Shown one piece after another: positions 23,815 through 26,085 of a stretch of DNA of 40,153 nucleotides (its first letter is position 1; each line of letters opens with the position of its first letter). The stretch lies in sequence record OZ335957.1; one strand, written 5' to 3'. The translations under genes and the position numbers were made by a program. The notes under the pieces are model-generated. The model saw only the letters and a list, made by a program, of their open reading frames with translations. It did not search any database and had not been told where the DNA came from. Source of the DNA: a phage.

Positions 23815-24864
23815 ATGGCAAACGTTCCGGGTCAGAAAGTTGGTACAGACCAAGGTAAAGGCAAATCTGGTTCCGACGCTCTGGCGTTGTTCCTGAAGGT
23901 CTTTGCTGGTGAAGTCCTGACTGCATTCACTCGCCGCTCTGTAACCGCTGACAAGCATATTGTCCGTACCATTCAGAACGGTAAGTCTGCTCAGTTCCCG
24001 GTCATGGGTCGCACCTCTGGTGTGTATCTGGCTCCGGGTGAGCGACTGTCCGATAAGCGTAAAGGTATCAAACATACCGAGAAAGTGATTACCATTGATG
24101 GTCTGCTGACTGCCGATGTGATGATTTTCGACATTGAAGACGCGATGAACCACTATGACGTGGCTGGCGAGTACTCCAACCAGTTGGGCGAAGCTCTGGC
24201 TATCGCTGCCGATGGTGCGGTACTGGCTGAGATGGCTATTCTGTGTAACCTACCGGCTGCATCTGATGAAAACATCGCTGGTCTTGGCAAAGCGTCTGTG
24301 CTGGAAGTTGGTACTAAAGCCGACCTGAACACTCCGGCTAAGCTGGGTGAAGCAATCATCGGTCAACTGACCATTGCTCGTGCGAAGCTGACATCCAACT
24401 ACGTTCCTGCTGGCGACCGTTACTTCTACACCACGCCGGACAACTACTCTGCAATCCTCGCGGCTCTGATGCCGAACGCTGCTAACTATGCTGCGCTGAT
24501 TGACCCAGAGACTGGTAACATCCGTAACGTAATGGGCTTCGTGGTTGTTGAAGTTCCACACTTGACTCAGGGTGGTGCTGGGGAAACTCGTGGTGACGAT
24601 GGTATCACTATTGCGACTGGTCAGAAGCATGCCTTCCCAGCTACTGCTACTGGTGATGTTAAAGTTGCTCTGGACAACGTTGTGGGCCTGTTCTCTCACC
24701 GTTCTGCTGTAGGTACTGTTAAGCTGCGTGACTTGGCGCTGGAACGTGACCGTGACGTCGATGCTCAGGGCGACCTGATTGTTGGTAAGTACGCTATGGG
24801 TCACGGAGGTCTGCGTCCAGAAGCGGCAGGAGCACTGGTTTTCACAGCGGCGTCAGCGGGTTAA
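23815..24864 (+). CDS. 10A: Major capsid protein (T7 gp10A-like)
   Basis: 349 aa; KLALFLKVF.GEVLTAF, KSAQFPV.GRT, HTEKVITIDGLLTADV, AALMPNAANYAALIDPE, HRSAVGTVKLRDLALER, YAMGHGGLRPEAAG match T7 gp10A. Confidence 0.98.
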   Translation: MANVPGQKVGTDQGKGKSGSDALALFLKVFAGEVLTAFTRRSVTADKHIVRTIQNGKSAQFPVMGRTSGVYLAPGERLSDKRKGIKHTEKVITIDGLLTADVMIFDIEDAMNHYDVAGEYSNQLGEALAIAADGAVLAEMAILCNLPAASDENIAGLGKASVLEVGTKADLNTPAKLGEAIIGQLTIARAKLTSNYVPAGDRYFYTTPDNYSAILAALMPNAANYAALIDPETGNIRNVMGFVVVEVPHLTQGGAGETRGDDGITIATGQKHAFPATATGDVKVALDNVVGLFSHRSAVGTVKLRDLALERDRDVDAQGDLIVGKYAMGHGGLRPEAAGALVFTAASAG

Positions 24865-25127
24865 CGACCTTTAAGGCCCTCTCTACAGAGGGTCCTACCT
24901 TAGAGACGTATAGTTCTACGGTGGGGACCAGCTTGAAGGTTGACTTCCAGGAGCTTTCAGATGTGACCGATTGGTCGCTTCTTGAGGTGACTACGCCTGA
25001 TGGTGTTAGCTACTCCCGTAGAACCAACAGTCTCTACTTCAAGGCCACCTCTGGCGTGGAAGGTCTGGTGATTGTTGGGTATGACGGTTCGCCTGTGCGT
25101 TCCTTCAACGTATCTTTCACAAACTAA
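24837..25127 (+). other. 10B: Programmed -1 ribosomal frameshift site (G GTT TTC) and 94-codon extension giving a minor capsid protein (gp10B-like)
   Basis: Heptamer G GTT TTC in the 10A frame 7 codons before its stop; -1 frame open from 24843 to TAA at 25125-25127; 8-bp hairpin at 24875-24894. Confidence 0.6.
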
Positions 25128-25133
25128 TTGAAA

Positions 25134-25170
25134 CCCCTTGGGTGCCTTCGGGTGCTTGAGGGGTTTTTTG
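25134..25170 (+). terminator. Intrinsic terminator for phage RNAP (T7 Tphi-like)
   Basis: CCCCTTGGGTGCCTTCGGGTGCTTGAGGGG hairpin followed by TTTTTT; close to T7 Tphi (AACCCCTTGGGGCCTCTAAACGGGTCTTGAGGGGTTTTTTG). Confidence 0.9.
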
Positions 25171-25190
25171 CTTAATGATGAGGAGGGACT

Positions 25191-25280
25191 ATGTTCCTTA
25201 TTTACACATGGTTAGTACTATTCGTCTTATTCTGGTCGTACCTGCTGCCAAGCTCACCGTCCAGCCCATATGACCGTTAA
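25191..25280 (+). CDS. Hypothetical small membrane peptide (29 aa)
   Basis: GAGGAGGG RBS 5 nt upstream; FLIYTWLVLFVLFWSYLL hydrophobic. Confidence 0.3.
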   Translation: MFLIYTWLVLFVLFWSYLLPSSPSSPYDR

Positions 25281-25291
25281 GGAGTAAACCT

Positions 25292-25858
25292 ATGCCTCAA
25301 TACATTCCACTGAATGCTAACGATGACTTAGACGCCATCAACGATATGTTAGCTGCTATCGGTGAACCAGCAGTCCTACAGCTTGACGAAGGTAACGCTG
25401 ACGTCTCGAACGCTCAACGTATCCTGCATCGTGTTAATCGTCAGGTCCAAGCTAAAGGCTGGAACTTTAACATCAACGAAGCTGCTGTCCTGACGCCTGA
25501 TGTCCAAGACAACAGGATTCGATTCCTGCAGTCTTACCTTCGGGTCATGACTGCTGGTGCTACCAGTTACTACAGCAACATGGGGGGCTATCTCTATGAC
25601 CTGTCCACTCAGTCCACGACCTTCACTGGACCAATTACAGTCGAACTGGTGGAGATGAAACCGTTCGCTGAGATGCCTGTAGTATTCCGTGACTACATCG
25701 TTACCAAGGCTAGCCGTGAGTTCAACGCTAAGTTCTTCGGTAGCCCAGAGTCTGAACTGTACCTTCGTGAGCAGGAAGCAGAACTCTACCAGCAGGTGAT
25801 GGAGTACGAGATGGACACTGGTCGCTACAACATGATGTCCGACATCGGGAGGGACTAA
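25292..25858 (+). CDS. 11: Tail tubular protein A (T7 gp11-like)
   Basis: 188 aa; position and size match gp11; RBS AAGGAG. Confidence 0.9.
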   Translation: MPQYIPLNANDDLDAINDMLAAIGEPAVLQLDEGNADVSNAQRILHRVNRQVQAKGWNFNINEAAVLTPDVQDNRIRFLQSYLRVMTAGATSYYSNMGGYLYDLSTQSTTFTGPITVELVEMKPFAEMPVVFRDYIVTKASREFNAKFFGSPESELYLREQEAELYQQVMEYEMDTGRYNMMSDIGRD

Positions 25859-26085
25859 TGGCTAGTCACAACCTGAAGATTCACCGCCAGCACTTTGGTC
25901 CGGTACAACTAGGTCTAAAGACAGCAGAGCTGAGACTTAACGACCGGGACTTTAAGGTTGGCGACTGGCTTATCCTGAATGAGTGGGACAACGGGTATAC
26001 TGGACAACAGGTAGCACGTAAGGTTGTCCACATTGCTGACGTTGGTGACATCGCTGAGGGATACGTCCTAATGAGTATGATTTAA
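25858..26085 (+). CDS. Hypothetical small protein (75 aa) between tail tube genes; ASCH/DUF3850-like fold suspected
   Basis: TAATG coupling to gp11; KTAELRLNDRDFKVGDWLILNEWD resembles DUF3850/ASCH-type motifs (from memory); T7 has no gene here. Confidence 0.6.
   Translation: MASHNLKIHRQHFGPVQLGLKTAELRLNDRDFKVGDWLILNEWDNGYTGQQVARKVVHIADVGDIAEGYVLMSMI

Follow-up and report, generated by a model that had tools for sequence, protein, structure and literature searches.

The window, the whole 40,153-nt stretch of phage DNA analysed here (OZ335957.1), belongs to a Kayfunavirus, a K1F-like coliphage of the T7 family. The plus-strand open reading frame at 23,815-24,864, taken from the ORF list, encodes the 349-amino-acid, 36.4-kDa major capsid protein in the zero frame (gene 10A) and ends with the TAA at 24,862-24,864. 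Its product matched the Gp10A-like family in Pfam (E=3.4e-105) and T7 gp10A in the PDB (E=1e-145; solved homologues 9vvq, 7y23 and, for T7, 2xvr), which identifies it as a T7-like major capsid protein of the HK97 fold, and is 96% identical to the capsid protein of K1F and 71% identical to that of T7. Codons 341 to 343, CTG GTT TTC (Leu341-Val342-Phe343), hold the slippery heptamer G GTT TTC (24,837-24,843, plus strand) in X XXY YYZ register, to which motif G GUU UUC conforms imperfectly. The first-pass annotation had placed this heptamer in the capsid frame seven codons before the stop, and register and position are as it described, the TTC being the seventh codon before the 10A TAA. GGTTTTC occurs only this once on the plus strand of the entire 40-kb window.

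The -1 frame opens at 24,789 and runs uninterrupted through 24,843 to a TAA at 25,125-25,127, also in keeping with the first-pass annotation, giving a plus-strand extension (24,843-25,127) of 94 sense codons (HSGVSGL...NVSFTN) and the stop. Codons 1 to 343 joined to this extension specify a 10B protein of 437 amino acids, with YAMGHGGLRPEAAGALVFHSGVSGLTTFK as the predicted junction peptide across the shift. The computed mass of 10B is 46.0 kDa rather than the roughly 47 kDa first proposed; likewise, the earlier statement that the capsid protein is extended by 94 residues is correct as a count of -1-frame residues, but 10B exceeds 10A by a net 88 (437 versus 349 amino acids). Directly after the extension, where a Tphi-like terminator had been noticed, a plus-strand hairpin resembling that of T7 Tphi begins 2 nt past the stop (25,130-25,167; 17 pairs including G-U, dG -25.2, z -5.4) and is followed by a T-run to 25,169. 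It agrees with T7 Tphi in the AACCCCTTGGG...TGAGGGGTTTTTTG motif, which is common to T7, K1F, KP32, PP74 and T3, and has CCCC inside it at 25,134-25,137. The Tphi CCCC of T7 has been reported to influence gene 10 frameshifting and to be needed for its full efficiency (PMC5009743).

The extension is predicted to comprise two parts. Residues 1 to 20 (24,843-24,902, plus strand) form a linker predicted to be disordered, with AF2 pLDDT values below 50 over residues 1 to 17, and the first seven of these residues overlap the end of 10A. Residues 21 to 94 (24,903-25,124, plus strand) are modelled as an Ig-like beta-sandwich of seven strands, the first at residues 21 to 26, and this predicted fold is well formed and confident. 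Pfam and PDB profile searches did not place the extension in a recognised Ig-like sequence family (Big_2, I-set, FN3): the Pfam search at E<=1 returned no family, only a single spurious M14 match below the cut-off, and the PDB profile search returned nothing below E=1. The only match in PHROG was phrog_7473, of 'unknown function', and BLASTP detected no similarity to the T3 extension (E=1).

Conservation of the slip site and selection on the extension

We compared 23 gene 10 loci from five genera. That the site is conserved, as the first-pass annotation had claimed, is borne out by an unchanged G GTT TTC in 22 of them, spanning Kayfunavirus, Przondovirus, Berlinvirus and Teseptimavirus; the exception is T3, which has a different site. 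Wobble positions beside the heptamer vary among the compared loci, and in 16 aligned capsid genes only 18% of the third codon positions of gene 10A are invariant. The same alignment has 16 columns of invariant Val, and the GTT of the heptamer is the sole one in which the codon is invariant as well. The heptamer also falls within the second-longest invariant run of the gene. Against this background of synonymous change, the heptamer is conserved beyond chance.

In all 22 relatives carrying the heptamer, the -1 frame continues without a stop well beyond the end of 10A, and in every window-type lineage its stop lies 91 to 96 codons after the heptamer, indels notwithstanding. Homologues of the extension were found by tblastn in 455 phage records (42-99% identity), most of which align from residue 1; those in Klebsiella and Pectobacterium phages align from this same residue, the shift point, at 42-46% identity. 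Across five genera, the dN/dS of the extension in the -1 frame is 0.15 to 0.47, indicative of purifying selection. The linker has pN/pS values mostly below 1 over residues 8 to 26 (0.09-0.84 in close and intermediate pairs), its -1 frame is stop-free in all lineages despite indels of one to two codons, and the part of it from the 10A stop to the first possible start codon looks coding.

A wider survey found the heptamer in 49 of 79 T7-like loci. Among 74 non-identical T7-like loci, the -1 frame stayed open for 40 codons or more beyond the 10A stop in 53 of the 56 with a slip motif and in 5 of the 18 without one (p=3.6e-8), and extension-less loci typically have GTC TTC, not GTT TTC. On the basis of the codon invariance of the heptamer, the dN/dS of the extension and this association between motif and extension, slip site and extension are maintained by selection.

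Frameshifting and C-terminal cassettes in related phages

The -1 programmed ribosomal frameshift of T7 gene 10A/10B was reportedly described by Condron, Atkins and Gesteland in 1991. The mechanism is already known and is annotated in close relatives of the window; the T7 and T3 records carry joined 10B CDSs. The T7 heptamer at the matching place has been proven experimentally (cited in PMC5009743; PMC1635266) and, as the first-pass annotation stated, is the identical G GUU UUC in the same codon register, there too only a few codons upstream of the stop of 10A. The -1 ORF of T7 likewise ends just before a Tphi terminator with the AACCCC...GGGGTTTTTT motif, and the distance from slip site to Tphi CCCC is ~290 nt in the window and >200 nt in T7. 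The two extensions differ, with no apparent similarity between them. The T7 extension had been given as about 53 amino acids, which is right as a net gain (398 versus 345 codons), but it measures 56 from the shift point. The window's extension is indeed considerably longer (94 from the shift, 88 net), but a length of 94 amino acids is not unusual for the family, since T3 has 89 and other loci have 87 to 304. The T7 extension has been reported as not Ig-like (PMC5009743).

Escherichia phage Peacock (MK903279) carries the orthologous locus, with 98.6% nucleotide identity over 92% of a 1601-nt query. Its CPT_Peacock_041, 'minor capsid protein', is a two-piece joined CDS whose start and stop are identical to those in the window, with the same heptamer and a 94-amino-acid extension that is 95.7% identical, differing by few substitutions. 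The window has an insertion of ~100 nt after the terminator that Peacock lacks. In another genus, the capsid protein of Klebsiella phage KP32 (Przondovirus) is ~73% identical to that of the window, and the record of its gene 30 carries the note 'minor capsid protein is produced from gene 30 by a -1...'. KP32, PP74 and PP81 (Pectobacterium) have the slip site of the window, apart from the variants C GTT TTC (L049/L050) and A GTT TTC (PP81), and a homologous extension of 96 amino acids, 42-46% identical from the shift point, with the terminator directly after it. T3 and phiYeO3-12 resemble the window in that frameshifting by -1 close to the 3' end of gene 10 places an Ig-like domain of ~89 amino acids on some subunits (work cited in PMC5009743). 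However, T3 slips at a lysine codon (C CCA AAG), whereas the window has G GUU UUC, and the extensions are dissimilar, so the window is not of the T3 type.

K1F, the type species of Kayfunavirus, shares the heptamer and the terminator with the window in addition to its closely similar capsid protein. Functional g10b::GFP fusions prove frameshift expression in K1F, and adhesin fusions work too (PMC6277420). Unlike that of the window, the K1F extension is of the short T7 type, 48 amino acids from the shift; homology between K1F and the window is lost immediately 3' of the heptamer and picks up again at the stop of the extension, indicating that the extension behaves as a swapped cassette. For Gp10B of Kluyvera phage Kvp1, a -1 shift at TTTTCA was shown by MALDI MS/MS of a virion band (PMC2579914), although here again the extension is of the short T7 type and the product is 42.1 kDa. 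The conserved slip site is a docking point for at least four unrelated C-terminal cassettes that have been exchanged among T7-like phages. Such cassette docking is useful for phage display and engineering, and has already been exploited in K1F. Literature searches returned no proteomic proof for the window's type of extension. The SH4 extension is 97.9% identical to it, and the SH4 virion proteome lists only a 36-kDa capsid protein from a search database that did not contain the extension sequence.

Proposed decoding and alternative readings

Conservation, selection, annotation and experiments in relatives together support the proposal, made in the first-pass annotation, of a longer minor capsid protein produced by frameshifting, and we consider it highly probable that the locus is a T7-type gene 10A/10B -1 frameshift site yielding a minor 437-amino-acid 10B. 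Most ribosomes would translate gene 10 to the TAA at 24,862-24,864 and produce the 349-amino-acid major capsid protein. A minority, with Val-tRNA and Phe-tRNA on GUU UUC of the heptamer (24,837-24,843), would slip back one base in tandem, Val-tRNA re-pairing from GUU to GGU and Phe-tRNA from UUC to UUU. The slipped ribosomes would then decode CAC AGC GGC and onwards, 94 codons in the -1 frame as far as the TAA at 25,125-25,127, and the slip product would be a 46-kDa minor capsid protein with a flexible linker of ~20 residues and an Ig-like beta-sandwich of ~74 residues as its extra part. For the slippage itself, its rate, the incorporation of 10B into virions, the ligand of the domain and the 3' elements that would set efficiency (hairpin, Tphi), we infer from relatives and from the literature, which gives a T7 slippage rate of ~10% and a mixture of 10A with roughly 10% 10B.

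The C-terminus of T7-type capsid proteins is on the outer surface, and a subset of subunits would therefore display the Ig-like domain on the virion. Judging from the structural model, part of the capsid surface would then carry a domain with an Ig-like fold and a sequence belonging to no classified family. Weak adhesion to mucus or to host surfaces is the role ascribed to domains of this kind, and this one is probably a weak accessory adhesion module, as has been proposed for other phage Ig-like domains. In one natural variant (L015/L034) the second half of the domain is gone, suggesting that the domain is dispensable at least there.

The ORF at 24,921-25,127 (GTG start, 68 amino acids) is in the mechanical ORF list, and it might be made as a separate small protein without any frameshift; most related GenBank records have a separate small CDS here, labelled 'hypothetical protein', and public gene calls at the extension give proteins of 49 to 87 amino acids. 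We nevertheless regard independent expression as very unlikely. The extension frame is without any ATG, the GTG at 24,921 has a very weak SD (-2.9 kcal/mol versus -7 to -13 for most real genes), and gene callers chose five different start positions among homologues of the extension. The 26 codons upstream of this GTG are open from the heptamer and conserved at the protein level in all lineages, a start at 24,921 would remove predicted beta-strand 1, and the presence of the downstream ORF correlates with the slip motif in gene 10. We also considered Pectobacterium phage MA1A, in which the domain has the appearance of a stand-alone gene with a gene 10 leader. The MA1A record, a 'partial genome', lacks the capsid gene, and in PP81, a relative with a complete genome, the capsid gene is followed by its -1 extension as usual; MA1A is therefore no evidence for independent expression. 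The 68-amino-acid 'hypothetical protein' belongs merged with gene 10 as its -1 product (10B, 437 amino acids), and at the extension most related GenBank records are wrong, among them that of SH4, which leaves it unannotated.

A nearly identical protein would result if the phage RNA polymerase slipped on the run of four T's, deleting a U in some mRNAs, and no ribosome slipped. The site does contain this short T run, where sequence alone cannot separate transcriptional from ribosomal slippage, but four T's are far below the homopolymer lengths normally tied to efficient polymerase slippage. Moreover, conservation covers all seven nucleotides, the G preceding GTT among them, and keeps them in one codon register, which fits tandem tRNA re-pairing. 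The literature treats the T7 site as one of ribosomal frameshifting (PMC5009743), and we accord polymerase slippage only a very small probability. Least probable, to the point of being barely credible, is that the heptamer and the open -1 frame persist as relics of an ancestor and that the OZ335957.1 phage makes no meaningful extended protein. It could be argued from the bare G GUU UUC heptamer, which gives <1% frameshifting when removed from its native 3' context (PMC1635266), from the truncated domain of one relative (L015/L034) and from the viability of T7-family members that have no extension at all. Against it, the extension is under purifying selection across five genera, the slip codons are strictly conserved whereas other synonymous sites are not, and the extension fold is well formed and confidently predicted. 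Read as a ribosomal frameshift site of the known T7 type, the OZ335957.1 locus leaves current understanding unchanged.

RNA structure downstream of the slip site

An 8-bp hairpin noted in the first-pass annotation ~30 nt downstream of the heptamer is real and is at that distance, but has nine pairs with one bulge (GGCCCUCU-CUAC-AGAGGGUCC; 24,874-24,896, plus strand, starting 30 nt past the heptamer and 9 nt past the stop codon of 10A). With a dG of -13.2 and a local z of -3.1 (1/200 shuffles), it ranks in the top ~4% when equivalent gene 10 blocks are compared (40-nt windows). It is invariant in close relatives and partly eroded in two other loci (L021/L022). At 30 nt from the slip site, this hairpin is too distant to be a canonical stimulator. 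No canonical stimulator was found 5-9 nt downstream of the heptamer, and the 77 nt that follow the heptamer fold no better than shuffles (z -0.67).

Three other candidate signals were rejected. The dnaX-type -1 PRF signal consists of an SD-like element ~10 nt upstream and a stem-loop 5-9 nt downstream; in the window, AGGAG (24,828-24,832) is only 4 nt from the heptamer and is unconserved (GGC or GGT instead in relatives), and the nearest stable hairpin is 30 nt downstream. A shifty stop formed by the end of 10A itself (G GGU UAA, 9 nt ahead of the hairpin) is not retained in relatives, which have GGC, CCG, GCG or GAG before the TAA, whereas the heptamer is invariant. Pairing of the Tphi CCCC with GGGUU at 24,858-24,862 is a possible 5-bp match by eye, for which KP32 and L013 types have no equivalent G-run. 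An Rfam scan of 24,600-25,400 (E<=1) gave two chance-level matches only, far under gathering scores.

A stable stem-loop is found at the matching position in the window-type, L013-type, KP32-type, T7-type and Kvp1-type lineages; K1F-type and Big_2-type extensions have a weak one or none. Where present, the stem-loop starts ~4-13 nt past the 10A stop codon and 13-31 nt past the heptamer, and in each of the five lineages its stability ranks within the top 1-5% of equivalent gene 10 blocks. We tentatively suggest, though we think it rather unlikely, that the post-stop hairpin is a hitherto undescribed part of the recoding cassette of the T7 family, conserved in position. Were it to tune how often ribosomes shift, perhaps in concert with Tphi, this would help to explain why the T7 site depends on its 3' context, a long-standing puzzle. 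Alternatively, the hairpin may modulate the fate of terminating zero-frame ribosomes, or it could have nothing to do with recoding and act, for instance, in the processing or stability of the mRNA. The KP32-type stem-loop is longer than that of the window, with 16 bp, and shows two compensatory base-pair changes brought about through amino-acid changes in the linker.

The frameshift site and its product

Nucleotide searches with the 1.6 kb around the frameshift site matched 386 phage records, led by Escherichia phage vB_EcoM_SHAK7854 (98.6%), with many coliphages of Kayfunavirus (K1F-like, Autographiviridae/Studiervirinae) next at 92-98%; across 20 kb the top match is vB_EcoP_F (95.5%). On these matches the window is a Kayfunavirus. 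Gene 10A (23815-24864, + strand) encodes a T7-type major capsid protein of 349 aa and 36.4 kDa (Pfam Gp10A-like, E=3e-105), to which 9vvq, 7y23 and T7 gp10A are close solved structures. Capsid codons 341-343 read CTG GTT TTC, therefore the heptamer G GTT TTC (24837-24843, + strand) stands in X XXY YYZ register, and its TTC is the seventh codon ahead of the TAA at 24862-24864, as proposed in the first-pass annotation. The -1 frame opens at 24789 and translation from the heptamer gives 94 sense codons (HSGVSGLTTFKALSTEGPTLETYSSTVGTSLKVDFQELSDVTDWSLLEVTTPDGVSYSRRTNSLYFKATSGVEGLVIVGYDGSPVRSFNVSFTN) followed by a TAA at 25125-25127 (24843-25127, + strand), again as proposed. The frameshift observation is thereby confirmed, and its interpretation as a capsid-extending -1 frameshift is supported. 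Although 94 codons are indeed read in the -1 frame, the net gain over 10A is 88 aa, and the fused product (343+94 = 437 aa) has a computed mass of 46.0 kDa rather than the anticipated ~47 kDa. Alignment places the heptamer at the same codon position in T7, bearing out the suggestion of a shared slip site; the ~53 aa given there for the T7 extension is correct as a net figure (345 vs 398 codons), but from the shift point it is 56 aa.

In T7 gene 10 the site of the -1 shift is G GUU UUC, where G_GU is tolerated as an imperfect X_XX (PMC5009743); the shift takes place in about 10% of translations in the native context and <1% with the bare heptamer (PMC1635266). For Kvp1, MS/MS sequencing of 10B, the longer frameshift product, placed the shift at TTTTCA (PMC2579914), and K1F g10b fusions to GFP and to adhesins have been expressed and displayed (PMC6277420, PMC13370021). 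The capsid frameshift is thus a known feature that is annotated in the closest relatives: the Peacock record has a 'minor capsid protein' CDS, annotated as a join, whose ends coincide with those of the window prediction, and the KP32 RefSeq note likewise describes a minor capsid protein made by -1 frameshift. Most other related records list the extension piece as a separate 'hypothetical protein', the SH4 record leaves it unannotated, and the SH4/SH5 paper reported a gp10.1-like gene to be absent from both phages. The main practical value of the finding is annotation correction.

Conservation of the slip site and coding of the extension

Among 23 compared loci (the window, 19 others with the heptamer and a long -1 ORF, and T7, K1F and T3), G GTT TTC is present at the same codon position in all except T3, and the flanking codons vary synonymously (GCA/GCG/GCT, GGA/GGC/GGT, CTG/GTG). 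When 16 capsid genes are aligned by codon, invariance is seen at only 18% of third positions; the codon itself is invariant in just one of 16 invariant-Val columns, the GTT of the heptamer, and TGGTTTTCA ranks second in length among the invariant stretches of the gene. A wider IMG/VR sweep of 79 T7-like capsid loci recovered G GTT TTC in 49, C GTT TTC in two and G GTT TTT in one, the others having T3-like xxA AAG sites or, for the remainder, GTC TTC, ATC TTC and similar. After removal of identical loci (74 retained), a -1 ORF continuing for 40 codons or more beyond the end of 10A was found in 53/56 loci with a slip motif and 5/18 without (Fisher p=3.6e-8, a statistic that ignores phylogeny). 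Variant sites also precede homologous extensions, namely A GTT TTC in PP81 (L028, 1410-1425) and C GTT TTC in two further loci (L049/L050), so perfect P-site re-pairing (G GU) would not be strictly needed, the constant element being TT TTC.

Homologues of the 94-aa extension were found by tblastn in 455 phage records, with 78-99% identity in Kayfunavirus and relatives from Salmonella, Citrobacter, Cronobacter, Enterobacter and Morganella, and 42-46% in Klebsiella Przondovirus (KP32, K11) and Pectobacterium phages. Most of these alignments start at residue 1, which is the shift point, and in every window-type lineage the heptamer is followed by 91-96 open codons of the -1 frame in spite of 1-2-codon indels. 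The dN/dS of this frame is 0.15-0.47 (Nei-Gojobori), and pN/pS for the 19-codon stretch from the 10A stop to the first candidate start is 0.09-0.84 in close and intermediate comparisons, nearing 1 only at saturation. That start, GTG 24921, would allow the extension to be translated independently of any frameshift, which is unlikely given that the frame contains no ATG, that the Shine-Dalgarno duplex of the GTG is weak (-2.9 kcal/mol, where most long window genes have -7 to -13), that gene callers chose five different starts in homologues, and that the modelled first beta-strand (residues 21-26) lies upstream of the GTG. A frameshift origin is thus preferred for the extension. In the 'partial genome' record of Pectobacterium phage MA1A (MN308080; L020, 1300-1620), the capsid gene is missing, and an internal ATG of the extension comes straight after the promoter, leader and ATG of gene 10; this apparent stand-alone extension gene probably arose as an artefact of assembly or submission.

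RNA structure and the downstream terminator

The predicted 8-bp hairpin about 30 nt downstream is present at that distance, but folds as 9 pairs with a bulge (24874-24896, + strand; dG -13.2 kcal/mol, z -3.1). Classical frameshift stimulators are spaced 5-9 nt from the slip site, and the window hairpin at 30 nt falls outside this spacing. The 77 nt after the heptamer have no unusual structure overall (z -0.67). The hairpin is invariant in close relatives, so its conservation there is uninformative, and it is partly remodelled in L021/L022. A stable hairpin that begins 4-13 nt past the 10A stop falls within the most stable 1-5% of comparable gene 10 blocks in window-type, L013-type, KP32-type, T7-type and Kvp1-type lineages, but not in K1F-type, T3 or T3-like extension lineages. 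The KP32-type hairpin (L018, L019, L023, L049 and L100-L108; 12 distinct sequences) is a 16-bp helix, 99% paired and 21-60 nt past the heptamer, in which two pairs have compensatory changes (AU to GC and CG to UA) made via non-synonymous changes in the linker; only 1/500 shuffles matched this covariation. The recurrent stable hairpins and KP32-type covariation suggest selection on RNA structure at the post-stop position; a role in frameshift efficiency is hypothetical.

The Tphi-like terminator (25130-25167, + strand), a 17-pair hairpin with a T-run (dG -25.2, z -5.4), begins 2 nt past the extension stop, in keeping with the first reading, and has the motif AACCCCTTGGG...TGAGGGGTTTTTTG in common with T7 Tphi. 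Frameshift efficiency in T7 is influenced by the terminator CCCC >200 nt downstream (PMC5009743). Between the terminator and the gene 11 Shine-Dalgarno sequence, the window has a ~100-nt insertion (25171-25291); among the phages that lack it, and in which the terminator leads straight into gene 11, are Peacock, L012 and L021. The insertion encodes a 29-aa hydrophobic peptide (25191-25280; MFLIYTWLVLFVLFWSYLLPSSPSSPYDR) that has a strong Shine-Dalgarno sequence, GAGGAGGG, and no match to Pfam; its ORF falls below the length cut-off of the default ORF listing. A 75-aa ORF between genes 11 and 12 (25858-26085) encodes a DUF3850/ASCH-domain protein (Pfam E=1.9e-19) and is an accessory gene inserted in the tail-tube module.

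Fold and exchange of the extension

An AlphaFold2 model built with a 20-sequence alignment indicates a disordered linker at residues 1-17 (pLDDT <50) and a seven-strand beta-sandwich at residues 21-93 (block pLDDT 87-91). The sole strong BFVD match to the model is the PP81 'minor capsid protein' and the sole family match is phrog_7473 'unknown function'; there is no Pfam family and no sequence relative in the PDB, and the T3 extension is not similar in sequence. Given the modelled beta-sandwich and the lack of Pfam, PDB and T3 sequence matches, the extension is predicted to be an Ig-like fold of an unclassified sequence family. The frameshift-derived extension is Ig-like in T3 and not in T7 (PMC5009743).

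At least four types of unrelated extension follow the G GTT TTC site in the survey: window-type (91-96 aa), T7/K1F-type (45-57 aa), T3-like (87-89 aa; L053, L094, L097) and the multi-domain tail of L084 (IMGVR_UViG_3300034349_000001; 304 aa, heptamer G GTT TTT). The last, a 304-codon -1 ORF with several apparent Big_2-like repeats, is the longest capsid extension surveyed. The window extension is, as first noted, considerably longer than that of T7 (88 vs 53 aa net), but is unexceptional for a family that includes L084 and T3 itself (89 aa). K1F belongs to the same genus as the window and has a 96% identical capsid, yet carries a T7-type tail. Nucleotide homology between K1F (L025, 1160-1312) and the window (24843-25127) is lost directly after the heptamer and returns at the extension stop and terminator, so the extension behaves as an exchangeable cassette flanked by two conserved landmarks and swapped within one genus. 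A natural variant, L015/L034 (IMGVR_UViG_2974604219_000001), has a deletion that removes the latter half of its Ig-like extension, so the domain would be dispensable in at least one lineage. The -1 frame of this variant continues into a hydrophobic tail (…TTPEWFFLLKVRMIMFYLLTALGLFVSFWAIILLTGPCSPYDR) like that of the small window ORF in the insertion.
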